A stretch of DNA of 64,000 nucleotides, taken from contig CAZXCI010000002.1 in NCBI GenBank assembly GCA_964639285.1, forward strand, positions 45,660 to 109,659, in the 5' to 3' direction. A program made the position numbers and the translations under genes. Origin of the DNA: an uncultured Candidatus Saccharibacteria bacterium. Its GTDB lineage: Bacteria; Patescibacteriota; Minisyncoccia; Phycocordibacterales; XYD1-FULL-46-19. Numbering within the stretch: position 1 is the first letter of the stretch; every line of letters starts with the position of its first letter. Positions 4,728-64,000 of this stretch are shown here, in pieces. Under the pieces are notes generated by a model, which saw only the letters and a list, made by a program, of their open reading frames with translations, had not been told where the DNA came from and ran no database searches.

Positions 4728-6695
4728 ATGGCTAAAAGTAATGGCAAAATGCCTAAAATGCCTGCCCGTTGGCCAGGCGGTCCTAATTTTAAGAAAGGGA
4801 AGGTGCTGGGGCAATTTGGCAATCAGCTCTTTTTGGGCGTGCTTATTCTCGCCGTCATTGTCTTCATTTATGCCTCTGTCGCCGAGAATAGTGCTAAGAC
4901 CGAATCTCAAATCATCCCTTTGTCTGAAGTGGCTCAACTTATCAATCAAGACAAGGTGACAAAGATTTCTGTTCAGGGCGAGAGTCTCAAGATCACTCTG
5001 GCCGACAAAACGACTAAGGAAGCCAAGAAGGAGACGGAGAGCTCTCTTTCTCAATCTCTGGTCAATTACGGAGTACCGGCAGACAAATTAAGTAAGGTTA
5101 CGATTGAAGTTAGTGATTCTTTCGGCTTAGCCTTTTGGTTGGGGACAATTTTGCCGGTACTAATTCCTATTATATTTGTCTTGATTCTTTTTTGGTTTAT
5201 CTCGCGACAAGTCAAAGGAGCTTCGATGCAGGCCTTCACCTTCGGCCAATCGCGAGCTCGTCTTATTGATCCTAAAGATGGGTCGCAACGGGTCACCTTC
5301 AAGGATGTCGCCGGGGTTAGAGAAGCAAAAGAGGAGCTCTCAGAGATTGTCGACTTCTTGCGCAATCCAAAGAAATTCTTAGACATTGGCGCTCGTATTC
5401 CTAAAGGTGTTTTACTCATGGGTGCGCCGGGTACCGGCAAGACCCTTCTTGCCCGAGCGGTGGCTGGGGAAGCTAAGGTTCCCTTCATGTATCTGTCTGG
5501 CTCAGAATTTGTTGAGATGTTTGTGGGCGTGGGCGCTTCGCGGGTAAGAGACCTCTTTACCATGGCCAAGAAGTCGGCGCCAGCCATTATCTTCATTGAT
5601 GAGATTGATGCTATTGGTCGCCACCGTGGTTCGGGTATGGGTGGGGGCAATGATGAACGTGAACAAACTCTTAATCAAATTTTAACAGAGATGGATGGTT
5701 TTGAACCGACCGAGAAGGTGATCGTCATGGCGGCGACCAACAGGCCCGATGTGCTTGATCCGGCCTTGCTTCGTCCTGGACGCTTCGATCGTCGGGTGAT
5801 GCTTGATTCGCCAGACAAGAAGGATCGTGAAGAAATTTTATTAATTCATGCCAAGAAGAAACCGTTGGGGGAGGATGTCAATATGACCATAATTGCCGAA
5901 CGCACACCCGGTTTCTCGGGGGCGGATCTAGCGAACATCATGAACGAAGCGGCAATTTTGACCGCCCGTGAGAATCGACAGAAAATTACTCAATATGATC
6001 TCTTGAGATCTGTTGAGAAAGTGATGATGGGCCCCGAGCGCAAGAGTCATATTCTCTCTGTTCAAGAAAAGAAGATTACTGCTTATCATGAGATTGGTCA
6101 CGCTCTTGTCTCCTCACTCCTTGAATTTGCTGATCCGGTGCATAAGGTCTCGATTATTGCTCGAGGTAACGCGGCTGGTTACACCCTTAAACTTCCCTTT
6201 GAAGATCGCAAACTTCAGTCACGCAAAGAATTCTTGGCTGACTTAGCTACTTCGCTTGGGGGTTATGCGACCGAGAAAATGATTTTCAATGATCTGACAA
6301 CTGGGGCCTCCAACGATATTGCCGTGGCGACGGCTTTAGCTCGAGACATGGTCACTCGCTATGGTATGAGTGAGAGTCTTGGCCCCATTGCCCTTGATTC
6401 TGGGGCTCGCGCCAGCGCGACCGGTGGTTGGCTGGCCGAGAAAACGATTTCGGAAGATACTTCAATGCAGGTTGATCAAGAAGTTAGCAAATTGATGAAC
6501 AGCGCTTTGGCTCAAGCTGAGGAGATTCTTAAGGCCAACAAGAAGGCGCTTGATAATATTTCTACCGAATTAATTAAAGTTGAGACTCTCGAACGAGAAG
6601 ATTTTGAAAAACTTTTGATCTTAAATGGTATCAAGCCAAAGGTTAAGCCAGAATCTGGCGAAGAGGGGAATATTTTTGCACCTAATCATGAATAA
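4728..6695 (+). CDS. ftsH: ATP-dependent zinc metalloprotease FtsH
   Basis: 655 aa with two N-terminal TM segments, a Walker A motif GAPGTGKT, an AAA domain with second region of homology, and the HEIGHAL zinc motif. Confidence 0.95.
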
Positions 6696-7212: not shown

Positions 7213-7286
7213 GCGCGTGTAGCTCAATTGGTTAGAGCACAGAGCTTATACCTCTGCGGTTCCTGGTTCGAGTCCAGGCATGCGCA
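7213..7286 (+). tRNA. tRNA-Ile (anticodon UAU)
   Basis: A 74-nt cloverleaf. The acceptor stem is GCGCGTG/CATGCGC, the anticodon stem CAGAG/CTCTG, the anticodon loop CTTATAC, the T-loop TTCGAGT and the discriminator A. Confidence 0.8.
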
Positions 7287-7307
7287 CATATTTAAGACAA
7301 CCTTTAG

Positions 7308-48559: not shown

Positions 48560-49879
48560 CTAGTTCAGGACCGGAAAAACTTTTGCGAGGAAAAGGCGGT
48601 TTTCCTCATCTTTCCCGAATTCCCCATTGAGGCTCTTCCTGCCTTCTTCTATCAATGATTCGATCTTGCCGTCAGGAAAAGTTTCAGGGAAGAACCAGCC
48701 ATTTCTACCGAGACGTTTATGAGCCAAGAGCAGGCGGCTAAAATCGTCCCAGCTCCATTTGAGGGGGTATCTTTCAACTCCCTCTAGCATCGCTTGCCCA
48801 ACGTCCTCTTTGCTTCTGATGGGGCGACCTTCTTCTGGAGCGAGAGTATCTTCAAGGGCCCCACCCTCTGCTCTTTGGATTGGTTCATCATTGGTAGAGG
48901 GACGGGCAATGATTTGTTTTCTCTCTAATAACTCCAGTGTCTCTTTCACTTTGTTGTGAATCATTGCGTCTGGTGCTGTCGAGAGATCGAACCCGACAAT
49001 CCTTGCTTCCTCTTTGATTTTCTGGGGTTTGTCCAGTTCTCTCCAGCTGATTCCCCAAAGATTATTTGAGAGGATTGCGAGGATCATTGTCTGCCAATCA
49101 TCCCCGTTGCCGTTGGGAGACTTTAATTTCCCAATCGAGGGATTAGCCGGCGGGTCATCTCTTTCGACACTTCGACTTCTGGGGGAGTGGGCTTTGCCGG
49201 TGACAATCAAAGCTCTCTTGTAAGCATCTTTGAGCTGCCTTTTTCTACTCGGCGCTGGGTTACCTGGCCCTGCTCTTGAGATCTCTCTTCCTGCCGAGAA
49301 CTCCTCGCTCTCTCCATCGTCTGGAGTTTCGCGCTTGTCGTCGTCTTTTTCAAGGAAATAAACCCTTGTGCTTCCTTTGTCGCTCTCTCGACGAGAAGAG
49401 ATCCTGTGACGGCCGGTTCTTCTAATCCCTTGCAGAGCCGCCATCGTCAGTTTGCGCTCGTCATTTCCTGGTGAGGCTAGATTCAATTCAATTAAATGTC
49501 GATGGATCTGGAGAATTGTACTCTCGCCGTTTTTTGCAAGGAAGTCGAGGATAGCGGCGCTTTTGCTTTCTCCACGTTTTCTTCTCTTTGAGACTTTTGT
49601 CTCTTTTCCCGTCGTCGGCATCGAGGATCGGTTTTCCAACGTAAGAGTAGTTGTGCCTGCCTCAGTCTGTAGTTGGGCCAATCCCGCTTCTAGCTGAGAC
49701 TTTTCTCTCTGTAACTCTGGGAGTTTCTCTTCCAGAAGGGTGACAGCAGATCTGATGTTTCCTATCTGGAGATTGAGGACTCTAATTTTTGTTCCAATCT
49801 CCTGCTCCCCTGTTAGGAGACTTCCAGACGTCATCATCTGAGCGATGTCATTTGGGCCGAAGTGTTTTCTCGTAAGCAT
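48560..49879 (-). CDS. Hypothetical protein, GC-rich, with coiled-coil N-terminus and basic/acidic low-complexity centre
   Basis: 439-aa ORF at about 52% GC, clearly above the local background. No recognised catalytic motif. Confidence 0.4.
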   Translation of the reverse strand: MLTRKHFGPNDIAQMMTSGSLLTGEQEIGTKIRVLNLQIGNIRSAVTLLEEKLPELQREKSQLEAGLAQLQTEAGTTTLTLENRSSMPTTGKETKVSKRRKRGESKSAAILDFLAKNGESTILQIHRHLIELNLASPGNDERKLTMAALQGIRRTGRHRISSRRESDKGSTRVYFLEKDDDKRETPDDGESEEFSAGREISRAGPGNPAPSRKRQLKDAYKRALIVTGKAHSPRSRSVERDDPPANPSIGKLKSPNGNGDDWQTMILAILSNNLWGISWRELDKPQKIKEEARIVGFDLSTAPDAMIHNKVKETLELLERKQIIARPSTNDEPIQRAEGGALEDTLAPEEGRPIRSKEDVGQAMLEGVERYPLKWSWDDFSRLLLAHKRLGRNGWFFPETFPDGKIESLIEEGRKSLNGEFGKDEENRLFLAKVFPVLN

Positions 49880-50251: not shown

Positions 50252-51130
50252 GTGAATGATGAAATAAAACAAAAAATTGAACAAATTGAGCAAGCAATGT
50301 TGGCTTCAGATTTTTGGTCCAATAAGGATCTCGCTCAGGAGAAGATTAAGGAACTAAGTCGTCTTAAGGAAGAATTATCTGGTCAAGGTAAATATGATAA
50401 GGGTGATGCTATTATCACCATCTTTGCCGGGGCGGGGGGGGATGATGCTGAGGATTGGGCACGGATGCTCTTCGATATGTATTTCAAATGGTCAGACAAA
50501 AACAAGTTCGAACTGAAGATAATTCATCAGAATGTGAATGATCGCGATGGTTATCGCAACATCACTTTTGAGGTGAGGGGGAGAGGTGTCTATGGTTTAC
50601 TTAAAAATGAATCGGGAGTTCATCGCCTTGTTCGGCTCTCGCCCTTCAATGCTAAGAGTTTGCGTCATACTTCTTTTGCCTTGGTCGAAGTGATTCCTCG
50701 TTTTGCTAAAATGGAAGAGGTTAAGATTCCCGATGACGACTTGAAGATTGAATTTGCCCGATCCTCTGGCCCTGGTGGGCAGAATGTTAATAAGCGTGAG
50801 ACGGCTGTTCGACTGGTGCATCTTCCCACGAACATTGCTGTTCATGTAGATTCGGAGCGTTCTCAATTGCAAAACCGAGAGAAGGCTCTCGCTATTCTAG
50901 CTGGTAAACTTTATAAAAAAGCGGAGGAAGAAAGACTGAAGAAAGAACAGGGAATGTATGTTAGTAAGACAACAGAGATAGAATGGGGTAATCAGATTCG
51001 TTCTTATGTCTTGCATCCTTATAAGTTGGTGAAGGATCATCGAACAGAAGTTGAAACAAGTGATGTTGAAGGAGTTCTCTCTGGGGGCTTGGATATGTTC
51101 CTCCAGGCCGAGAAAGATCTGACTGTTTAA
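50252..51130 (+). CDS. prfB: Peptide chain release factor 2 (short N-domain, no programmed frameshift)
   Basis: SPF tripeptide motif (SPFNAK) and GGQ motif (SGPGGQNVNK). 292 aa, encoded in a single frame. Confidence 0.85.
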   Translation: MNDEIKQKIEQIEQAMLASDFWSNKDLAQEKIKELSRLKEELSGQGKYDKGDAIITIFAGAGGDDAEDWARMLFDMYFKWSDKNKFELKIIHQNVNDRDGYRNITFEVRGRGVYGLLKNESGVHRLVRLSPFNAKSLRHTSFALVEVIPRFAKMEEVKIPDDDLKIEFARSSGPGGQNVNKRETAVRLVHLPTNIAVHVDSERSQLQNREKALAILAGKLYKKAEEERLKKEQGMYVSKTTEIEWGNQIRSYVLHPYKLVKDHRTEVETSDVEGVLSGGLDMFLQAEKDLTV

Positions 51131-54555: not shown

Positions 54556-54574
54556 ATCAAGGCACGCCCTTGAT
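54556..54574. repeat. Subterminal hairpin ATCAAGGCACGCCCTTGAT (left end of RAYT copy 2)
   Basis: A 7-bp stem. Near-identical copies occur at 55275-55297 in the same orientation and at 54763-54781 (inside the ORF) in inverted orientation. Confidence 0.6.
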
Positions 54575-54605
54575 GATCCCTGCATCTGGGGGTATAATAC
54601 TGATT

Positions 54606-55271
54606 ATGCAAAGGAGTTTTTCTTTTGGCCCGGGAGAAGTTTATCATCTTTATAATCGGGGGGTTAATAAACAAAGGATTTTTTCGGGTGACCATGATCG
54701 CTTTCGTTTTTTGATACTTATGTATCTTTGCAATAGCAAAAAAGATGTTCATGTCAGCAATTATCAAGGGCGTGCCTTGATGGACTACTTTACTATTGAA
54801 AGGGGTGATCCTGTGGTTGAGATCATGGCTTATTGTTTGATGCCAAATCATTTTCATCTGTTAGTGAAAGAAAATAAAGAGGGTGGTATTTCTAGATTTA
54901 TGCTTAAACTTTTGACTGGTTATGGTATGTATTTTAACAAAAAGAACGAAAGAACTGGGCCAATTTTTGAGGGGCGTTTCAAGGCTAAGCATGTTGTTGA
55001 GGATTCTTATCTAGAGTACCTGTTAGCTTATATTCATCTAAATCCAGTGAAAACAAAAGATGAAAAAGGTTGGGATGAAAAGAAGATTTTCAAGACTAAA
55101 ATAGCAAAAGACTTTTTGAGTTCGTACCGTTTTTCTAGCTATCAGTATTTTTTGGGTCAAAATCGTTCAGAAGATCGCATCCTCAATACCACTTCTTTGC
55201 CTAAGGAGTTAATTGATGGTCAGAAAGATACAGATGATTTGATAAACATATGGTCAGAATTTGAAGCCTGA
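54606..55271 (+). mobile_element. IS200/IS605-type Y1 (HUH) transposase, RAYT-like, copy 2
   Basis: HUH motif HFHLLV and Tyr in YIHLNPVK. It is roughly 45% identical to copy 1 by eye. A TATAAT at 54592-54597 lies 8 nt before the ATG, so the mRNA is probably near-leaderless. It is flanked by hairpins at 54556 and 55275. Confidence 0.75.
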
Positions 55272-55357
55272 TTACCATCAAGGTACGCCCTTGATGGTCA
55301 GGTTAATTTGGTGAGGCTTGGATTTTGGTCAATTTTTTGCTAAATTGTACTAGTTAT

Positions 55358-55428
55358 TGCCGGATCGTCTAATGGTAGGACACATCCCTCTGGAGGATGG
55401 TATCTTGGTTCGAGTCCAAGTCCGGCAG
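55358..55428 (+). tRNA. tRNA-Gln (anticodon CUG)
   Basis: Acceptor TGCCGGA/TCCGGCA, anticodon stem CATCC/GGATG, loop CTCTGGA, T-arm CTTGGTTCGAGTCCAAG and discriminator G. Confidence 0.75.
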
Positions 55429-55589
55429 CACGCTAGTTTCGGTATCGAAGGACCTAAACAGGTAATAATTGTAATGGTTCTAGAATGATCTAAACTGGTA
55501 TGTGTCTTGTACATAGAACTTTTATTCAAAAAGTACCAGACCTAGACCAGTGACATTCCTAGAGGGTCAGCAGTCTAGAAAAGTATCGA

Positions 55590-58169
55590 ATGACCAAGAG
55601 GGGTCAATTTCCTAGTAACCTTCAAAATAGCTATAATTCGCACATGGAACCTCCAGAAGATACAACCGATGAATCACAGGCTTGGGTCTCAAAGATAAGG
55701 ATATGGGTGAAAAGCAGACTTGATTTTATATATGGTAAATGTAAGGAGGTAATACGTCACACCTCTAATATTTGCATTCTCTTCAAACAACAAAAGATCT
55801 TTCGCTGGGGAGTAAGGTTCAGATACCTTTTGTACAAGATTTCTCAGCATACAAAATTCCTAAGGCATATCTTTTTGGTCATTTGTGCTGTTATTCTTGC
55901 ATATTTTTTAATCCAGTTTACTGATCTTACTGATCCAAAGACCGCCTCAATCTCGAGTTTTGCAGATTATCTTTCAACAATAGGGGCAATGGTAGGTGGG
56001 GTGTTGGCCGTTGTGTTTTCATTGACCATATTTGGACAGCAGAGTATTTTGGATGTTCATTCAACAAAATTGCTTCACAAGTATGTGTATGGAATACGAG
56101 AGAAGAGCACTTTCTTTGGGATAAGTTTCATTACGTTGCTTTTCTTCGTGGCTAGCAGATGGTCGGCGAATGTAATCGAGCCCAACCCAGTTACATACAG
56201 CATTTTAATTTACGGATCCTCTATGCTCGTGGCGGTAGTCTTCGTATTAGTTGATCTGCTTTACCAGCGAGTCAGTGGCAAATCTTCCTCTGCTGAGATA
56301 TTCGGCTTCCTACAGAAAGAAAGTCTTGCGGTTTTGAAGAAGATAGATAAATACTCGCAACGTCTTGTAAACATTGGCGTTGCTGAGGGACGAGTGAAGA
56401 AACAGGAAGTTCAGATGGGCCTTCTAAAAGCTCAGAGTCGAGCTGCCGTATCTAAGACATTTCGAGCCGAACTAGATGAGAAACTCAAGGTTATTTATGA
56501 AATTACAGTTCGTCTTATAGCACGCAAGGAGTACGAACCTGCAAACAACGGGCTGCGCACTTTGCACGCTGTTATTAGGGAGTATCTATTACTGGTCAAA
56601 GATTCTTCGACCTCAATCCCTGCAAATAGTAGTTCTCTTGGTGTGTTGGGTTTACTCGCTCGGCAGAGTGATAGCGTTGATTTCCTGAATACCAACTTAG
56701 AACGTTTGGCTCGCATTGGGGAACAAAATGTTCTGAATGAAAATGTACAAAATCTTCAACTTGTAACGGATGTTTTTAAAGCCCTTGTTGCTCAAGCTGA
56801 GAGTATCAATCATGTTGGAAACGATACAGAAAACTACATTCTTCCCCTGATTATCGGTTATCAGACTGAGTATCTTGAGTTCGCCATTCTCCAAAATAAT
56901 CTCGAATCTGTCTGGCAAACAGCTCAAGCTCTTGATAACATGGCAGGATCTGCGGTTCGAGGAAAGTCTCAACAAGCACAACAGCAGATTAGAGAAAGCA
57001 TAGACAAGGTAATTCTGTTTGGAATCAAGAACGACAGAAGCTTTGTAATAAATGAATGTATGAATGCGGTGCTTGTTAGCATCATGTCTTTGTTCCATGA
57101 CAAGATGCCTTACGCATATACCTCAATTGATGATTCCCTAAAGCAAGTTGCAGCAAAGACGGAGCTGATTTATGTTGGAGTAAAAACAGGAATACTTACT
57201 GATCAGTTCACTACCACTCATTTCTTCACTCAGTGGTTGATTCATTTCCCAGTTCTTATAAATCAGTATCAGGATATAGTGGACAAGCGTGAAAAAGAAA
57301 GCTACCGAGAGAAACTCATACAAACAACAAAAGGCCTACAAAGACAACTCCGGCACATCTCTGAGAACATCAAAGATGTAGATAATCCGCTCGTTGAAGT
57401 TATTGGTAGAGTTATAGATGCTATGGGGGAATACCTTATATATTTCCTAAACCATCCGGATTTTATAGACGAGAAACGAGAAATCGAGAAAGTCCTTTAT
57501 GGCTATATTCATTTACCAGGATGGTTTGTTCATCATGCAACAACATACGAAAAGAATAATCAAAACCGATCTCTTGTTGAAGCCATAACAAAAATAGGCA
57601 TTTTTTTATTTGAAAAGTATCGCGATGAACGTCTCATCGAAGCTTGTATTGATTCCTTGTTTACTTTAGTGAAGGCGCTTTTTGAAAAGAATCCAAAATC
57701 ATACTTGTTCGATGAAGCTCGTGTAATGGTTAAGATTTGTTATCTCGGCGTTTTAGCAAGGAAGCACAGCATGAAGAGACTTTATGCTCTTGTGCGTGTA
57801 AAGATTCTTGAATTCGATAGATTGTACGCGGCTGCATATCAAAAAGAACTTAAAAAAGTACCTCAAGATTTGCGTGCTCAAATTGAAGCAAGAACAGTTT
57901 ATGGCTTCCCTGATAAAGAACGACTAAAGCAGGAGGTCTTTGCTTGGCGAAATGACGTGTATCGAGATACTAGTGGTGGCATGGCTCGCATGATGGGTGA
58001 TTCTCGAGGAATTGTTCAAGATTCTGTTACTATTGAGGACATTGATTGGTTTATGTGGGAAGTCTGGAGTGAGATTGACGCGTCCAGCTCGATCTCTGAT
58101 AAGATAGATTTGCAGTGGGCCAGAGAGCGTCTTTCGAAGACTTTAAGAAAAATTGCTGATGGAAAGTAA
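55590..58169 (+). CDS. Large (859 aa) hypothetical membrane protein with extensive cytoplasmic alpha-helical domain
   Basis: Four predicted TM helices within residues about 90-230, then roughly 600 aa with no recognised motif. It converges on the serine recombinase and overlaps it by 27 nt. Confidence 0.45.
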   Translation: MTKRGQFPSNLQNSYNSHMEPPEDTTDESQAWVSKIRIWVKSRLDFIYGKCKEVIRHTSNICILFKQQKIFRWGVRFRYLLYKISQHTKFLRHIFLVICAVILAYFLIQFTDLTDPKTASISSFADYLSTIGAMVGGVLAVVFSLTIFGQQSILDVHSTKLLHKYVYGIREKSTFFGISFITLLFFVASRWSANVIEPNPVTYSILIYGSSMLVAVVFVLVDLLYQRVSGKSSSAEIFGFLQKESLAVLKKIDKYSQRLVNIGVAEGRVKKQEVQMGLLKAQSRAAVSKTFRAELDEKLKVIYEITVRLIARKEYEPANNGLRTLHAVIREYLLLVKDSSTSIPANSSSLGVLGLLARQSDSVDFLNTNLERLARIGEQNVLNENVQNLQLVTDVFKALVAQAESINHVGNDTENYILPLIIGYQTEYLEFAILQNNLESVWQTAQALDNMAGSAVRGKSQQAQQQIRESIDKVILFGIKNDRSFVINECMNAVLVSIMSLFHDKMPYAYTSIDDSLKQVAAKTELIYVGVKTGILTDQFTTTHFFTQWLIHFPVLINQYQDIVDKREKESYREKLIQTTKGLQRQLRHISENIKDVDNPLVEVIGRVIDAMGEYLIYFLNHPDFIDEKREIEKVLYGYIHLPGWFVHHATTYEKNNQNRSLVEAITKIGIFLFEKYRDERLIEACIDSLFTLVKALFEKNPKSYLFDEARVMVKICYLGVLARKHSMKRLYALVRVKILEFDRLYAAAYQKELKKVPQDLRAQIEARTVYGFPDKERLKQEVFAWRNDVYRDTSGGMARMMGDSRGIVQDSVTIEDIDWFMWEVWSEIDASSSISDKIDLQWARERLSKTLRKIADGK

Positions 58170-59477
58170 CTTTTCTTTCATGTTAATTTTGCTTTTAAAA
58201 CAGGTAAGTAGATCTCGCTTCTCAAACAGTGTTCCTTCCAACAAAAGATATTTTGCATAATTTCTAATATCAGCGTCTTTTGCCGAGTAATTTTCTTGGG
58301 TTTTTCCCATAATTCCAGAGTGAAACTTTTTATGTCTCTCAATTTCGACTTCAAGCTTTTTTCTTATACCAGATTTATCTAGATCTACCTTGTCTATAAT
58401 TTTAGCCAATTGATCAATCAGAACTTTCTCCTCAATATAACCCTCCTTGCAGTTGATATCTCGTGAGCGAGTACAACCATAATAAATATATTTGGAGACA
58501 GAACCATCTTTTAAGGTCTTAAATTTCTCCTGGGCAGTTACACCAGATCCACACGCTCCACAAAAGAGAAGCCGGGTAAAAGCAAATTCCTTATTTCTAT
58601 CCTTTGCCTTTACTTGCAAATGAAGTTGGGTTTGTACTTGGTCAAATAAACTCTTCGAGATAAGAGGCGTATGTTTACCTTGAAACCATCGACCACTTTT
58701 CTTTGGGTATTCAAAGGCCCCATAGTAGAAATGACTGTTGAGGATTACGTAGATGTTACTAAGCGTAAGAGACTTTTCGTTTCGTGTTGTAAATTTTATC
58801 TCCTTGAGCCATCGATACACTTTTCTGCCACTCCATCCCTCGTTGCCAACTTTTTGAAATATTTCTTTCATAATCGGAGCACGATCTGGATCAACAAAGA
58901 CAACACCTGGTTGGTCCTTGTTCTTCGAGTTAAGGTATCCAGTAGGGGCAACGGATGGCCAAAGTCCCATTTCGCACCGAGTTTTTAACCCTCGTTTAAC
59001 ATTCACACTCTTGTTGTCGTTTTCAAGTTTAGCCTGTGATCCGAGAATCATGAGGAGGAATTTTTCGTTTGGATTGTTAGTAAATCTTTGACTGTAGGTT
59101 CTAATTTCGATTAGTTTTTTCTGATCAAGTAAATCTACCAGTGCGCCCAGATCACCGGCGTTTCTAGAAAGACGATCAGGATGCCAGACAAGAATACTGT
59201 TGAATTTACCCTCCCTAATATCTGTGAGCAGTTTATTAAAAACCGGTCTTTGTCCGCAATCTTTCGCAGAGTGTGATTCTCGATACATGTCAGCCACATT
59301 GATGCCCTCTCGCTGAGCAAGGGTCAACATTTCTTTGATCTGGGAGTCAATCGACAAGGCCTGCCTTTCTTCAGCCTCGCTCGATTTACGGGCGTATAGG
59401 CAGTACTTGAGGGGAATTACTGCTGGTACCTCGTCAGTCGCTTGTAGTGGACTTTGTATTTGCACAACACAACACAT
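58143..59477 (-). mobile_element. Large serine recombinase (resolvase/integrase family)
   Basis: An N-terminal resolvase catalytic domain with YARKSS (Ser nucleophile) and the conserved R, D, R residues, then a recombinase domain and a zinc-ribbon (LLFCGACGSGV...YYGCTRSRDINC), then a coiled-coil C-terminus. Confidence 0.8.
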
Positions 59478-59593
59478 ACCGGGATTATTTCTATTAGTCT
59501 AGCTTGAGGAGTTGATAACTAAGGAATCACCAAAGAGGCAATAAATTTCTTGCCCTAAAATCACTACAAAAATAACGCTATTTATGCTATAAA

Positions 59594-60349
59594 TTGATTA
59601 TGGAAAAAATGCCAGACGGCAAAGAAATTGAGCAAAAAGAATCCCTAGGTAAGGCTATTGGAAGAATAACGGTTATTAGACATGGGGACACTAGATATAC
59701 CGGTGATTATCCCGATCTAACAGAGCAAGGAATTGAGCAGATTTCTGCCCAAGCTGATACTTTGTCTGACGAGGTTGACCAAAACAAAGAAGAGATAATT
59801 TTTGTTTCTTCCCCAACCCCCAGGACTAGAGGGAGTATGGACATAATAAAAGAAAAGCTAGGTTTGGCTGAGCAAAGAACAAATGTTGTGCATGGAATTC
59901 GAGGTATTGACGTCAAAGATATGCCTAAAGCATTGGATATTATTAACGAGATAATGGGTGATGGTTTTGATTTAACTAAGATTGATCGAGCTTACGCTAC
60001 CGAAAAAAGATTTGAAGAAATGCCTGACGTTTGGGAAGCCCCATCAAACGTCGAAAAAAGATCGCTTCGCGCCCTAGAGTATGCGATTCGTGGATTAATT
60101 AAGGCCAAAGAATTAACCCCAGATAGAAATCCCCACATAGTTGCAACCTCCCATTTTGAGATTGTTGATCTTCTTTTGGCTAAAGTTTTTTATCGTGAGC
60201 CTGGTGATTTTCCACCCGGATCAAGAGTTGATCTTGCCTTATTTGAAAGCGAACAAAATCCTCAACAAATTAACATAGAAGTCACTTTTAGAGGTGAAAC
60301 GAGGAGTGCGATATTCAATCGTGAATCAAGAACAATCGAGAATATTTAG
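59594..60349 (+). CDS. Histidine phosphatase superfamily protein (PGAM-like)
   Basis: RHGDT catalytic motif (VIRHGDTRYTG) and a second His in TSHFEIV. Confidence 0.6.
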   Translation: MIMEKMPDGKEIEQKESLGKAIGRITVIRHGDTRYTGDYPDLTEQGIEQISAQADTLSDEVDQNKEEIIFVSSPTPRTRGSMDIIKEKLGLAEQRTNVVHGIRGIDVKDMPKALDIINEIMGDGFDLTKIDRAYATEKRFEEMPDVWEAPSNVEKRSLRALEYAIRGLIKAKELTPDRNPHIVATSHFEIVDLLLAKVFYREPGDFPPGSRVDLALFESEQNPQQINIEVTFRGETRSAIFNRESRTIENI

Positions 60350-60350
60350 T

Positions 60351-61370
60351 ATGGATAACTACAATAAAATTATTGAAGCGTTTAAAAATGGCGATATCGC
60401 AGGACTACCAGAGTCTGGCTCTAAACCTGAATATTTGCAAACTGAAATTTCCCACATATTTCTCTTTCCACAAACCGTTTTCAAGTTCTATCGTCGAGAT
60501 AGTAAGGGTTTTAACGAATACTTTTTTGATTTAAACGATAACGATAAGAGAAAAAACTTTTATCAAGAAGAGTTTATTTCTAATCATTATTTTAATCCAG
60601 AAGTCTACTCAAAATTGATGGGGTTAAAAATCGACGAAGGCCAAGTCTTGATTTTTGAGAATCTCGACGATGTCGAAGATAGAGTTATTCAGATGAAGAG
60701 GATCAATGCCGATAATAACCTGACAAACATTTTATTGCATGGGAAATTAAGTTCAGAAGATTATTACAAAATTGGAGATCAAATGACTAAGGCGCTGATT
60801 GGGTTTAATAAGGGGAAAGAGCTAGATGGCAATTACTACGAAATAATGGTCGCTTTTCTAAATGATCTTGAAAATTATCTTTACCTGTATGATAAAAATA
60901 TTTCCCGCGAAGAGTCTGGGCAAATTATGGTAAGTTTGAGGAAATTCTTAGAAGAGAACAAAGATCGTTTTGTTGACGCATCAAGATCGTTAATTGAAAC
61001 AATCGACAACCATGCCGACAATACTTACTACAATGACAATAAGGTTTCTTTTATTGATGCTTACTTACCCAAAGACAGTTGGCGAATTGTCGAGCCACTT
61101 TACGGCGTCTATCGACTACTTACCGATGTCGCCGCCTTGACCAATGACGAGACGGCGGAGCCAATGTTTAAGGGCTTTCAAAATAATTATCCAGATCTTC
61201 AATTTGATCTTGAACTGGATACTTTTTATAAGATATATTTTGCTTGCATTCGAGTTGGCCATTTTTTTGAGATTGCTATGAGAGACGCTTCAAACTACGA
61301 CGTTGCTAATCGTTACTTGGATTTTATAAAGAAGAAATTTTTATTACTAAATAATGGGAGATTACGATAA
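60351..61370 (+). CDS. Hypothetical protein (possible kinase-like fold)
   Basis: 339 aa from the ATG at 60351, directly after the upstream stop. The HG-containing segment NILLHGKLS weakly recalls APH-type phosphotransferases. Confidence 0.35.
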   Translation: MDNYNKIIEAFKNGDIAGLPESGSKPEYLQTEISHIFLFPQTVFKFYRRDSKGFNEYFFDLNDNDKRKNFYQEEFISNHYFNPEVYSKLMGLKIDEGQVLIFENLDDVEDRVIQMKRINADNNLTNILLHGKLSSEDYYKIGDQMTKALIGFNKGKELDGNYYEIMVAFLNDLENYLYLYDKNISREESGQIMVSLRKFLEENKDRFVDASRSLIETIDNHADNTYYNDNKVSFIDAYLPKDSWRIVEPLYGVYRLLTDVAALTNDETAEPMFKGFQNNYPDLQFDLELDTFYKIYFACIRVGHFFEIAMRDASNYDVANRYLDFIKKKFLLLNNGRLR

Positions 61371-62055
61371 AATCGCTGAACAGTATGCTGCCTACGGCAA
61401 AATAGTCACTACTGACTGGCTACTTGGGCATATGGGTGTGGCTAGATTATTAGAGCCGATCGCCGGCAAAAAGATTCTCGATTATGGCTGTGGCAACGGT
61501 AAGTTCAGCGTCTATTTACAAGACTCAGGAGCTGAGGTTGTTGGGGTGGACATATCGGCTAGCCAACTGGAAGTGGCCAAGAGAGAAAACAGCGAAAACA
61601 TAACTTACCTTCTAAGCAACGATCCAGTAATAGAGGAAAAATATACTGGCTACTTTGATGTCGCTGTTTTGATTTTTGTACTTTGCGAAAACTCCTCTCA
61701 GGAGAAGATTATTTCCATTCTCAAAAGGGTTCATCGTTTACTTAAGCCTAATGGCCAGCTAATTGTTTTGAATCCAAATTGGGATAAGAGTAATGGTAAG
61801 GATTTTATGACTCATCAAATGCTCTTTACTCCAAATCTTACGCCAGGCAGTAAAGTTACGACAATTTTAAAAGGGCCTTCGCCAATTGAGATACCGGATT
61901 TCTATTGGTCAAAAGATAATTATTTAGAGATGCTTAAAGTTTCTGGTTTCAATAATTTTAAGATTTCAGAACCATTGGCTTCCGACAATGAAAGAGAGTG
62001 GAAAGACGAAAAAGAGTTTCCGCCTTATCTCATCATTAAGGCTCGGAAAATCTAA
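61354..62055 (+). CDS. Class I SAM-dependent methyltransferase
   Basis: Motif I ILDYGCGNGKFS, a motif II acidic residue after the beta2 strand (VVGVDIS), and motif post I/III LLKPNGQLIVL. Confidence 0.7.
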   Translation: MGDYDKIAEQYAAYGKIVTTDWLLGHMGVARLLEPIAGKKILDYGCGNGKFSVYLQDSGAEVVGVDISASQLEVAKRENSENITYLLSNDPVIEEKYTGYFDVAVLIFVLCENSSQEKIISILKRVHRLLKPNGQLIVLNPNWDKSNGKDFMTHQMLFTPNLTPGSKVTTILKGPSPIEIPDFYWSKDNYLEMLKVSGFNNFKISEPLASDNEREWKDEKEFPPYLIIKARKI

Positions 62056-62109
62056 AAATTGTACCTAACCAATACTAGACAAAGATTCTTTTGCATTTCA
62101 GACCAGATA

Positions 62110-62139
62110 TTGACAGTATGTCTTACATGTGCTAGGATT
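62110..62139 (+). promoter_or_regulatory. Consensus sigma70 promoter (TTGACA, 18 nt, TAGGAT)
   Basis: It marks the start of a GC-rich (about 55-58%) segment. The downstream RBS GGAAGGAG precedes the ATG at 62248. Confidence 0.5.
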
Positions 62140-62247
62140 ACAGACAGAGCATGAAGGAGCTTCCTGGCTTCTTGAAATAGAGTTATTTACCTAGGGTCTT
62201 CAGCATCACCCTCTTGAAAAGGGGTGTGACAACGGAAGGAGTCGGTT

Positions 62248-62670
62248 ATGAATTGGATTATTGCGATGGCGTTGTGCTTCATCTTATGGAGCGTCTATGC
62301 AATCCCTGGAAACTTCGCCGAGAAGGTTCATGGGGTGTCGGTGAACATGCTCTTCGAGACAATCGCGTTCGTAGGGGTAGCTATCCTCTTGAGCGGGAGA
62401 ATCTGTGAAGGGTTGCCGAGAGTCACGGCTGGCTCTGCCACCTTAGGGTTGCTCATGGGATTAGGGTCAGCGGTCGGCTTCTACTTCTTCTTGACCGCCC
62501 TAAGTCTTGCACCGGGGACAAAGGGAATCGTTCTCGTCGTCCTGGTTGCCGGAATCACTTTTCCCATGCAAAGCGTCCTGTTCAGCTTCTTTGGTGAGGC
62601 CTTGAGCCTTCGCCAGTGGCTGGCCATCGTCGGGATGGGAGTTTCCCTGATCGTCTTCAACTGGAAGTGA
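62248..62670 (+). CDS. Small 4-TM transporter (EamA half-size / SMR-like DMT protein)
   Basis: 140 aa with four hydrophobic helices and a strong SD. The terminator 62684-62727 follows. Confidence 0.55.
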   Translation: MNWIIAMALCFILWSVYAIPGNFAEKVHGVSVNMLFETIAFVGVAILLSGRICEGLPRVTAGSATLGLLMGLGSAVGFYFFLTALSLAPGTKGIVLVVLVAGITFPMQSVLFSFFGEALSLRQWLAIVGMGVSLIVFNWK

Positions 62671-62683
62671 ACTTCCTCCCCTC

Positions 62684-62727
62684 CGCCCGCAGAACCGTCT
62701 GGCTCTGTCGGGCGGTTTCTGTTTTTA
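62684..62727 (+). terminator. Rho-independent terminator
   Basis: Stem CCGCCCG...CGGGCGG followed by TTTCTGTTTTT. Confidence 0.65.
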
Positions 62728-62769
62728 TGTAAAGCTAGTCCGAACTTTATATGCCCATCGGAGCCAAGA

Positions 62770-62798
62770 TTGACATACCGGTTCAAATATGTTAACAT
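62770..62798 (+). promoter_or_regulatory. Consensus sigma70 promoter (TTGACA, 17 nt, TAACAT)
   Basis: It lies just upstream of the AAGGAGG RBS and the ATG at 62822. Confidence 0.5.
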
Positions 62799-62821
62799 AA
62801 GAGGTAGAAAGGAGGTGTCCC

Positions 62822-63418
62822 ATGGACATCACATTGTGGTTCGGAGTAATTGCGGGCCTTATGCATGTGACAGCATTCGTTCTTTACAACAAGCAGATGC
62901 TTCGGGGAACTTCGGTTCCCAATGCGGCGACGTGGACACTTTGGGCTTTCCTTACGGTTCTGAATGTCTCAAGCTATGCGGCAATGAGTGGAGATCTCGT
63001 CAAGAGTATCTTGCCAGCCGCCAGCTCGCTCGCCTGCATCGCAACATTCTTCTTCTCCTTGTATAAAGGAAAGTTGTCGCGAATTGATACCTGGGATGGA
63101 ATTGCTCTGGCCATTGGGGCAGTATCAGGAATCGTCTGGTGGTGGTACAAATCCGCGACCTATGCCAACCTGATACTGCAACTATCGGTCGCGATCTCTT
63201 TCGTTCCGACCTATCGCGGCGTTTGGAGAAATCCCAGTGTCGAGAAGGCCTTTCCCTGGTATCTCTGGAGCTCTGCGTACATTTTGAGCATTGTCGTGAT
63301 CATTCTGCGCTGGAATGGCCAGTATGTCGATCTGGTTTACCCGATCAACTGCCTGTTCCTTCACTTGGCGGTGGGGCTTCTCACTGTCAGAAAGATTCCG
63401 ACGCCTGCTCATGCCTGA
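62822..63418 (+). CDS. Hypothetical polytopic membrane protein (about 6 TM), GC-rich
   Basis: 198 aa, Trp-rich and hydrophobic, with a perfect SD AAGGAGGTG 6 nt upstream. Confidence 0.5.
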   Translation: MDITLWFGVIAGLMHVTAFVLYNKQMLRGTSVPNAATWTLWAFLTVLNVSSYAAMSGDLVKSILPAASSLACIATFFFSLYKGKLSRIDTWDGIALAIGAVSGIVWWWYKSATYANLILQLSVAISFVPTYRGVWRNPSVEKAFPWYLWSSAYILSIVVIILRWNGQYVDLVYPINCLFLHLAVGLLTVRKIPTPAHA

Positions 63419-63557
63419 TACATACATGCCCCGACAGAGAAGCTTTGGCTCTCTGCCGGGGCTTCTTCGTTCATTGAAATATAAAAATTTTTCTGATATT
63501 CTAAAATCACAATTGAATATGGTGGCCTAAACCTACGCTTTTCAATTAAGGCTAGGC

Positions 63558-63680
63558 ATGGCTCAAAGTCCCGATGAAGACACTGAACCCCGCGTTCAGC
63601 AACTCTTCATCGGGCCATATCGGGAAACCGGTATGGGGTCGCAAGACCTAGCTAGCGCGGGGCTTAGTGTATATGAATGA
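63558..63680 (+). other. Structured GC-rich leader with a 40-codon upstream ORF preceding the T5orf172 gene
   Basis: Long stem CCCGATGAAGA...CTCTTCATCGGG (63570-63614) with an internal hairpin. GNRA hairpin GGTC-GCAA-GACC (63637-63648). The ORF MAQSPDEDTEPRVQQLFIGPYRETGMGSQDLASAGLSVYE has a stop that overlaps the downstream ATG. Confidence 0.3.
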
Positions 63681-64000
63681 AATAATCTACATTTTAACCA
63701 ACGAAGCCATGCCGGGGTATATTAAAATCGGGATGACTAATAATTCTCTAGAAGAGAGAATTCGGCAGTTAGACCGAACAAATATCCCGTTGCCTTTTGA
63801 GTGTTATTACGCTTGTGAGGTAGAAAATGCTCACGAGGAAGAAAGATGGCTCCACTCAGTTTTTTCCGATCGAAGAGTTCGAGATGGTCGCGAGTTTTTT
63901 CAAATTGACCCAGAAAGAGTCGTTACGGCCATTCGAAGAGTTCAGAAAAAAGATATAACGCCGAAGAATTTTATTAACACCACTAAAGAAGAAGAAAAAG
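63673..64000 (+). CDS. T5orf172 / GIY-YIG-like domain protein (partial; continues past the window end)
   Basis: MNEIIYILTNEAMPGYIKIGMTNNSLEERIRQLDRTNIPLPFECYYACEVENAHEEERWLHSVFSDRRVRDGREFFQIDPERV matches the T5orf172 (GIY-YIG-like) pattern VY.L.N.AMPG..KIG.T...eeR..eL......P..f...Y...v.....E..lH.....RV...REFF. Confidence 0.7.
   Translation, partial: MNEIIYILTNEAMPGYIKIGMTNNSLEERIRQLDRTNIPLPFECYYACEVENAHEEERWLHSVFSDRRVRDGREFFQIDPERVVTAIRRVQKKDITPKNFINTTKEEEK

Follow-up and report, generated by a model that had tools for sequence, protein, structure and literature searches.

Near the right-hand end of a 64,000-nt stretch of the metagenomic contig CAZXCI010000002.1 (hereafter the window, meaning the whole stretch analysed) lie two small membrane-protein genes of high GC content, here called gene A and gene B, followed by a small-RNA gene of the LOOT family. 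We interpret them as three independent modules that lie side by side in a Paceibacterota chromosome, within an island that is variable and probably mobile, with genes A and B gained laterally from GC-richer Patescibacteria; we give this interpretation a probability of about 0.6. The first module would be gene A, encoding a half-transporter of the drug/metabolite transporter (DMT) type and equipped with its own sigma70-type promoter, a leader of about 100 nt, a Shine-Dalgarno (SD) site and a terminator; the second would be gene B, encoding a permease-like protein with seven transmembrane (TM) helices, likewise with its own promoter, SD site and terminator; and the third would be the LOOT gene. 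Genes A and B would have come from other Patescibacteria of about 50-55% GC and would not yet have drifted to the composition of their new genome, so that their synonymous sites stand out, and both families would keep an SD-led stand-alone unit in every genome that they occupy, unlike the mostly leaderless genes of the host genome. Both proteins may serve as accessory small-molecule permeases for metabolite uptake or export in an auxotrophic, host-dependent bacterium, the gene A protein perhaps working as a homodimer and the gene B protein as a monomer with a pocket of conserved Trp, Asn and Tyr. Transcription starts, oligomeric state, transport activity and substrate of the two proteins are given throughout as predictions. 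The features of the segment are as follows.

62110-62138, + strand, promoter of gene A: TTGACA, 17-nt spacer, TG-extended -10 element TAGGAT (TGCTAGGAT), 10/12 match
62145-62247, + strand, 5' leader of gene A, about 103 nt from the predicted transcription start
62207-62226, + strand, hairpin in the gene A leader, CACCCTCTT-GAAA-AGGGGTG, just 5' of the SD site
62234-62241, + strand, SD site of gene A, GGAAGGAG
62248-62670, + strand, gene A, open reading frame (ORF) of 140 aa with five predicted helices, putative divergent single-EamA (DMT) half-transporter
62692-62728, + strand, intrinsic terminator of gene A, 12-bp stem (62692-62718) followed by the T-run CTGTTTTTAT
62770-62798, + strand, promoter of gene B: TTGACA, 17-nt spacer, TG-extended -10 element TAACAT (TGTTAACAT)
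62809-62817, + strand, SD site of gene B, AAGGAGGTG, separated by 4 nt from the ATG, in a short leader of about 17 nt
62822-63418, + strand, gene B, Trp-rich 7-TM ORF of 198 aa with a predicted PQ-loop/SWEET/KDEL-receptor-like fold
63429-63475, + strand, terminator-like hairpin after gene B, CCCCGACAGAG...CTCTGCCGGGG, then T-rich CTTCTTCGTTCATT; weaker than that of gene A
63524-63649, + strand, LOOT RNA gene (Rfam RF03000), a separate GC-rich module that ends 24 nt before a T5orf172 gene

Base composition of genes A and B

Measured in 200-nt windows, GC is 0.33-0.38 at 61.9-62.2 kb, climbs to 0.51-0.57 at 62.2-62.8 kb, stays at 0.50-0.52 up to 63.4 kb and then falls back to 0.40-0.45, the mean of the whole 64 kb being about 43%. 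The abrupt rise at about 62.1 kb, which an initial annotation made from the sequence alone had pointed out, is confirmed by these values and by a recalculation of GC at third codon positions (GC3); composition is not uniform. GC3 amounts to 0.702 in gene A and 0.613 in gene B compared with 0.404 +/- 0.059 in the 54 other genes of the window (z-scores of about +5.0 and +3.5), GC at first positions is ordinary in both genes, and GC at second positions is just 1.1-1.6 standard deviations above the window genes. The anomaly sits at synonymous sites, i.e., at third codon positions. It is not caused by the amino acid composition of membrane proteins, because GC3 is 0.42-0.46 in the three most hydrophobic proteins of the window (grand average of hydropathy >0.9). 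The interval 62060-63670 had been flagged as a single GC-rich cassette; the two GC-rich genes are indeed in it, but its terminal part (63524-63649) is the LOOT RNA gene and lies outside the cassette.

A comparison with other genomes shows that high GC is not a trait of the gene B family. Across 26 loci, the GC of gene B minus that of its flanks ranges from -0.08 to +0.15, and the gene matches the composition of its genome in L003, L024-26, L076 and L078 (handles of this kind denote the comparison loci) and is at or below it also in L005, L010 and L011. The copy in the window, with an excess of +0.12, is among the most extreme, which fits a recent gain from a lineage of about 50-55% GC.

Expression signals atypical for the genome

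The signals of genes A and B set them apart from the surrounding genes. The pattern TTGACA-N16-18-TANNNT has five sites in the 64 kb (1.7 expected), two of which are the promoters of genes A and B and one of which precedes the tmRNA gene. An SD-like motif is present in 5 of the 56 window genes (background 4.8%), and TATAAT (at least 5 of 6 positions) occurs no more than 22 nt upstream of the start codon in 22 of the 56 (background 9.8%). Because TATAAT lies so close to the starts while SD motifs do not exceed the background, these frequencies indicate that most genes of the host genome, as sampled in the window, are of a leaderless, SD-less type. The earlier statement that strong signals are atypical for the surroundings is borne out by the scarcity of both the SD-like motif and a perfect -35 element with a plausible -10 element. 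In composition, genes A and B are foreign to the genome in which they reside, and expression signals such as theirs are unusual there.

In detail, the near-consensus TTGACA/TAGGAT promoter described for gene A is present with a spacer of 17 nt instead of 18, and the promoter of gene B (TTGACA-17-TAACAT), the strong SD sites of both genes and a terminator after each of them were found as described. A terminator scan detects part of the gene B hairpin (63447-63463), and a similar element follows gene B in L002.

The only other clearly SD-led gene of the window (AAAGGAGAAG) is located at 48560-49879 on the minus strand among tRNA genes; it has a GC of 0.49 and a GC3 of 0.50, its product has no match in Pfam, and it may be another acquired gene.

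Genes A and B as separate units

The two genes had been described as a two-gene cassette, a description that does not stand. A tblastn search of gene A against 67 loci carrying gene B found no homologue within 4 kb of gene B in any of them, and in the window itself a terminator and a promoter separate the two genes. Genes A and B are two independent single-gene units, and an A-B operon or conserved pair is rejected by the 0 of 67 gene B loci that carry gene A. The neighbours of gene A homologues change from genome to genome (genes for a ribosome hibernation factor, DNA ligase, lysyl-tRNA synthetase, ribosomal protein L27 and others).

The architecture recurs with the families. A promoter of the form TTGAC[AT]-17-TGnTAnnAT lies 50-110 nt upstream in 9 of the 11 gene A homologue loci, and all 11 combine a purine-rich SD-like site with a terminator-like hairpin and T-run directly after the stop codon. 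A GGAGGTG-type SD site is kept by the gene B homologues in L002, L008, L009, L017, L076 and L078, even beside neighbours that have none. In two of these genomes (L076 and L078) gene B is found just downstream of rplM-rpsI, among core genes, with its SD site kept and with GC3 at or below that of its neighbours. Judged from these alignments, the promoters and terminators of genes A and B appear to be conserved in function and not in sequence; nucleotide homology to the nearest relatives comprises only the coding region and 13-38 nt upstream of it.

Homologues of genes A and B often reside 0.01-1.5 kb from tRNA or tmRNA genes (L002, L007, L011, L018, L070, L071, L028). Such genes are typical integration hot spots.

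The leader of gene A

The small hairpin reported in the first 5' untranslated region is present at 62207-62226, and a scan of this leader with Rfam riboswitch models (guanidine, fluoride) had been recommended in view of the small transporter encoded downstream. Control of gene A by a riboswitch or another structured cis-regulator in the roughly 100-nt leader, in the manner of the guanidine and fluoride control of small multidrug resistance (SMR) and DMT exporters, would be in keeping with the length of the leader and with the fact that the hairpin keeps its pairing through sequence changes in the closest relative (91% identical), where it reads ACCTCT-TACG-AGAGGT (L069/L080); in addition, some short hairpin precedes the SD site in most gene A homologues. 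These hairpins are generic, however, with plain GNRA or UNCG tetraloops, and the leaders of nine gene A homologues have no sequence in common beyond that shared with the closest relative. The folding energies are not below those of shuffled sequences (minimum free energy z = +0.22 against dinucleotide shuffles for the window leader, mean -0.72 over the nine homologous leaders). LOOT was the one Rfam family matched by cmscan of 61900-64000 at E<=10, and no riboswitch family was found by it or by a scan of the window at the gathering threshold, the classes covered being guanidine I-IV, fluoride and the others in Rfam 15. With no match, no conserved leader and no excess folding stability, we regard riboswitch control as very improbable. 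The hairpin may play a part in the stability of the mRNA or may modulate the SD site. A mini-ORF of nine codons (MKELPGFLK*) at 62151-62180 is also located in the leader; it has no SD site and is not kept in the leader of the closest relative.

Donor lineage and integrity of the assembly

We found 111 homologues of gene B and 35 of gene A, all of them metagenomic. Apart from one entry named 'bacterium' and uninformative function labels from the Joint Genome Institute (JGI), the named homologues belong to Patescibacteria, Paceibacterota and Lloydbacteria. The closest relatives are 91% identical for gene A and 83% for gene B, and all relatives above about 35% identity are either from Patescibacteria or on short, probably mis-binned contigs of metagenome-assembled genomes. 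Several short contigs of this kind that bear gene B are labelled Gammaproteobacteria, Acidobacteria, etc., and are probably mis-binned. The CTP synthase of the host genome (52883-54538) has its best named matches in Candidatus Paceibacterota (83-86% identity), i.e., in the same phylum as the named homologues, which suggests that the transfer took place within the phylum and that the donor was another lineage of the Candidate Phyla Radiation (CPR).

Lateral acquisition, which had been proposed from the sequence, remains the best reading of the GC3 values and of the atypical signals, but the proteobacterial or actinobacterial donor suggested along with it is not supported, because the named homologues are patescibacterial. 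Actinobacterial relatives of gene B (also without a Pfam model) reach just 21-31% identity, and searches of plasmid and phage collections gave neither a nucleotide match to the flagged interval nor a tblastn match to the gene B protein. On these grounds, proteobacterial, actinobacterial, plasmid and phage donors were all rejected. We infer both the direction and the recency of the transfer.

Abrupt changes of GC at 62.1 and 63.5 kb in a metagenome-assembled genome might also arise if contaminant DNA had been joined into the contig, as the initial annotation had cautioned. We consider such a chimera extremely improbable, because an independent Logan assembly, of run SRR8925774 (L001), is 100% identical over 58051-64000, spans both GC boundaries and runs 643 nt beyond the end of the window. 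Further points against a chimera are that low-GC DNA on both flanks would call for two joins, that the relatives of the insert come from the phylum of the host genome itself, and that plasmids and phages of cultured organisms show no similarity to the sequence.

A probable accessory island beside a tRNA gene

Three features define the setting of genes A and B.

55358-55429, + strand, tRNA-Gln(CTG), where the core genes end; possible integration site of the island
58143-59477, - strand, large serine recombinase/integrase with the Pfam domains Resolvase, Recombinase and Zn_ribbon_recom (phrog_95 integrase, E 1.9e-69)
63673-64000, + strand, T5orf172 (GIY-YIG-like) gene, cut by the end of the window, complete in L001 at 5623-6216 (Pfam E 3e-19 to 8e-20); many PHROG matches

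The core genes (RF2, FtsE/X, CTP synthase) stop at 54.5 kb and are followed by a Y1-transposase-like gene, tRNA-Gln, a gene for an uncharacterised protein of 859 aa, the serine integrase, and genes for a histidine phosphatase, another uncharacterised protein and an S-adenosylmethionine (SAM) methyltransferase, after which come gene A, gene B, LOOT and T5orf172. In the related genome L014, a tRNA-Gln gene, a recombinase remnant, an AT-rich patch and gene B all lie within 4 kb. This arrangement suggests that the region after the core genes is a mosaic, probably mobile accessory island beside a tRNA gene.

The same neighbours raise the possibility that genes A and B are 'morons' of an integrated CPR phage or of its remnant, whose own promoters would drive them regardless of the phage programme. 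Morons have their own promoter, their own terminator and a composition unlike that of their neighbours, and genes A and B are alike in all three respects, their promoters and terminators being predicted from consensus matches. The phage-type serine integrase, the T5orf172 gene and the presence of LOOT in viral contigs with terminase- or portal-like genes point in the same direction. Against this, the stretch from 55.4 to 64 kb contains no phage structural or replication genes and shows no prophage body; for genes A and B, unlike phage morons, no relative turned up in 2.9 million IMG/VR contigs, in PHROGs or among GenBank phages; and in other genomes both are located among core housekeeping genes. 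We therefore think it unlikely that they are morons, and the IMG/VR scans and PHROG searches, negative for both genes, speak against phage carriage of either.

Observations that weigh against lateral gain within a mobile island

Several observations speak against three modules in a mobile island, with genes A and B laterally gained. Nucleotide homology to the nearest relatives begins only at 62210 for gene A and at 62809 for gene B; as the promoters and terminators are not homologous to those of the relatives, the signals may have been rebuilt locally and not imported. In 9 of 11 loci the homologues of gene A have a higher GC than the flanking DNA (median about +0.04), and a small part of the excess of gene A may therefore be intrinsic to its family. 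No attachment (att) repeats and no island end were found within the window, only short repeats at chance level, and the right end lies beyond it. The absence of genes A and B from the viral contigs of IMG/VR and from PHROGs leaves no direct tie to a known mobile element. Finally, the matches of gene B to solved structures are at the level of fold only (sequence-level E 0.02-0.8).

The first two of these points would also suit native genes that have undergone no recent transfer and in which selection, e.g., for high or regulated expression, has favoured an SD site, a strong promoter and high GC3; the contrast with the neighbours would then reflect function and not history. The conservation of the promoter/SD/terminator architecture across hosts agrees with such an origin, as does L080, where other SD-led small genes also have a high GC3. 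Yet the homologues of gene B match or fall below the GC of many of their genomes (among them the nine listed above), a GC3 of 0.70 in gene A on a background of 0.40 is far beyond the median excess of its family, and the genes are located in accessory island DNA of low GC next to an integrase and not among core genes. A native origin is in our judgement improbable, and we retain lateral gain from other Patescibacteria as the preferred explanation. The A/B locus would thus be a real but fairly ordinary case of gene transfer within a phylum that overturns no current view.

The gene A protein

The 140-aa product of gene A had been described as a DMT/SMR-like protein with four TM helices. A DMT-like character is probable, but five helices are predicted instead of four and it does not belong to the SMR family. 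The protein has no match in Pfam or NCBIfam at E<=1; however, the EamA profile matches 5 of 34 relatives weakly (best E 2.8e-5), and two relatives are labelled 'DMT-like permease' by JGI. Five hydrophobic segments are visible by eye in its hydropathy, and an AlphaFold2 model of the monomer likewise has five main helices plus a short segment of six residues, although its mean predicted local distance difference test score (pLDDT) of 59 is too poor for a fold search. The protein resembles DMT half-transporters (EamA, PF00892) in its length of about 140 aa, its five predicted hydrophobic helices and the weak EamA matches of its relatives; it differs in having no profile match of its own and in not being duplicated to the usual 10-TM form. 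It is best read as a divergent single-EamA-domain, five-helix DMT half-transporter, an assignment that depends on the relatives and on predicted topology. The protein probably acts as a homodimer, with which the poor model of the monomer would be consistent. The motifs EKxHG, NMLFET, GSAVGFYFF and QWLA in the alignment mark a subfamily specific to Patescibacteria.

With the SMR proteins (EmrE/Gdx/SugE, PF00893) the gene A product shares a small size, several helices and a probably dimeric state. SMR proteins have four helices, about 105-120 aa and a conserved Glu in TM1, whereas the gene A protein has five helices and 140 aa, and its TM1 (MNWIIAMALCFILWSVYA) contains no membrane-embedded Glu. 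Membership in the SMR family was ruled out by its length, the five helices, the absence of the TM1 Glu and the lack of a Pfam match.

The gene B protein and its family

The 198-aa product of gene B is Trp-rich, as had been noted (11 Trp in 198 residues), but has seven TM helices instead of six. Its AlphaFold2 model is of high confidence (pLDDT 93.7, predicted template modelling score 0.88) and has the helices in a 3+1+3 arrangement, i.e., the fold of two triple-helix bundles that characterises the 7-TM members of the PQ-loop/SWEET clan. Foldseek searches of the PDB place the KDEL receptor, cystinosin and a eukaryotic SWEET at the top (template modelling score 0.52-0.66, probability 0.85-1.0). 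At the sequence level, no match was found in Pfam (E<=1; including MtN3_slv, PF03083, and PQ-loop, PF04193), NCBIfam, PHROG or the PDB, a profile search of PDB sequences returned just spurious short matches, and MtN3_slv matches 2 of 50 relatives weakly (E 0.037). The two halves of the protein align in register by hhalign, but an internal duplication is not significant (E 0.15).

The alignment of the family contains SxPN..TW..W after TM1 and PW..W..AY after TM5, with Trp, Asn, Tyr, Asp, Lys, Glu and His at positions that vary little or not at all. Compared with PQ-loop, SWEET and KDEL-receptor proteins (and the related SemiSWEET and PnuC), gene B is alike in the seven-helix 3+1+3 model; its Pro-containing motif SxPN after TM1 stands where PQ-loop proteins have PQ, with a matching PW..W in the second half, and its conserved Trp and Asn are similar to those of SWEET pockets. 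It differs in having no significant sequence similarity to them and in being a full-length 7-TM form from bacteria, chiefly Patescibacteria. PnuC itself (PF04973) is a poor counterpart, with no Pfam match and a Foldseek comparison to 4qtn that gives a template modelling score of 0.33-0.35 and a probability of 0.33. On the strength of the model, we regard the gene B protein as a putative small-molecule permease of the PQ-loop/SWEET fold.

An exhaustive profile search at E<=1e-3 recovered 2,981 cluster-50 representatives, and the family, as delimited by this search, appears to be large and to have neither a Pfam model nor a characterised member that we could find. Tandem paralogues occur in two loci (L014, 2029-3325; L007, 3319-4594), and two proteins of double length have two matched stretches each (P0164, 400 aa; P0185, 377 aa).

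Patescibacteria have tiny genomes, and their hosts supply most of their building blocks. Permeases are central to this lifestyle, and most of them are unannotated. The locus would illustrate how two permease-like families move between CPR lineages as self-contained expression units, and its interest lies chiefly in the uncharacterised SWEET-fold family, a candidate transporter family that deserves attention, and in the assignment of LOOT to a Paceibacterota chromosome as well as to phage contigs. A bolder proposal is that gene B represents a large, undescribed family of bacterial full-length 7-TM SWEET/PQ-loop permeases that travels as a self-expressing, SD-led single-gene module among genomes whose genes are otherwise leaderless, and that the small RNA LOOT belongs to CPR phages or mobile elements and marks the insertion regions in which such modules land; we hold this to be possible but doubtful. 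If it were true, the gene B family may provide auxotrophic episymbionts with metabolites from their hosts, the Trp/Asn pocket binding a sugar, nucleoside or vitamin.

The LOOT RNA

The segment 63524-63649 is a LOOT RNA, on the evidence of both its score and its compensatory changes. It is matched by cmscan over the full length of the model (positions 1-121) with 76.9 bits, the gathering score being 46.4. In an alignment of six distinct sequences, which was fitted to the model, 93% of the cells are paired, compared with 27-40% in slid controls, and 32 of 43 pairs have compensatory changes in which both sides are changed. LOOT copies were found in L009 and in five IMG/VR contigs with a covariance model built from a single sequence.

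L009, 3741-3867, - strand, LOOT copy
L158, 2928-3050, LOOT copy
L135, 3685-3808, LOOT copy
L155, 7962-8085, - strand, LOOT copy
L153, 1843-1956, LOOT copy
L088, 5532-5654, - strand, LOOT copy

A scan of viral contigs with an exact pattern gave 80 loci, of which about five are true by the covariance model and the rest fit chance matches of 17 bases. The copy in L009 is within 135 nt of a gene B in divergent orientation. The contigs of the L158 and L088 copies also carry a gene that was judged by eye, on its translation, to be terminase-like, and the L135/L155 copies lie beside a large ORF that, also by eye, is a possible portal protein. In L009 and L158, LOOT precedes homologous genes for a Zn-ribbon membrane protein, and in the window it precedes the T5orf172 gene. 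To our knowledge, the family has been described from metagenomes without an assigned organism; the copy in the window is the same in kind and is placed in a Paceibacterota chromosome beside T5orf172, with other copies in phage contigs.

A motif like GCGGGGCTT recurs directly 3' of the Rfam model, and ACAAT(T/C)GAAT recurs directly 5' of LOOT in three loci (the window, L135/L155 and L153), L009 having ACAAT only. These recurring flanks suggest that the LOOT transcript may exceed the Rfam model.

Other observations in the window

The IS200-like gene that follows the core genes (54570-55271, within 54556-55299) has a Y1 transposase domain (Pfam Y1_Tnp, E 1.4e-7) and is bracketed by a 23-nt palindromic repeat, ATCAAGGCACGCCCTTGATGATC, present in three copies (54556, 54763 and 55277), a layout similar to that of repetitive extragenic palindromes and their associated tyrosine transposases (REP/RAYT). 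Bacteria usually read AUA codons with a lysidine-modified CAU tRNA; ARAGORN predicts at 7213-7287 a tRNA-Ile with the anticodon TAT (UAU), an uncommon solution. A release-factor gene (50252-51130; PCRF and RF-1 domains) encodes only 292 aa from a GTG start directly after tRNA-Thr, and its PCRF match starts at profile position 66; judged from this match, the N-terminus may be missing, or may be encoded via a frameshift or another start.

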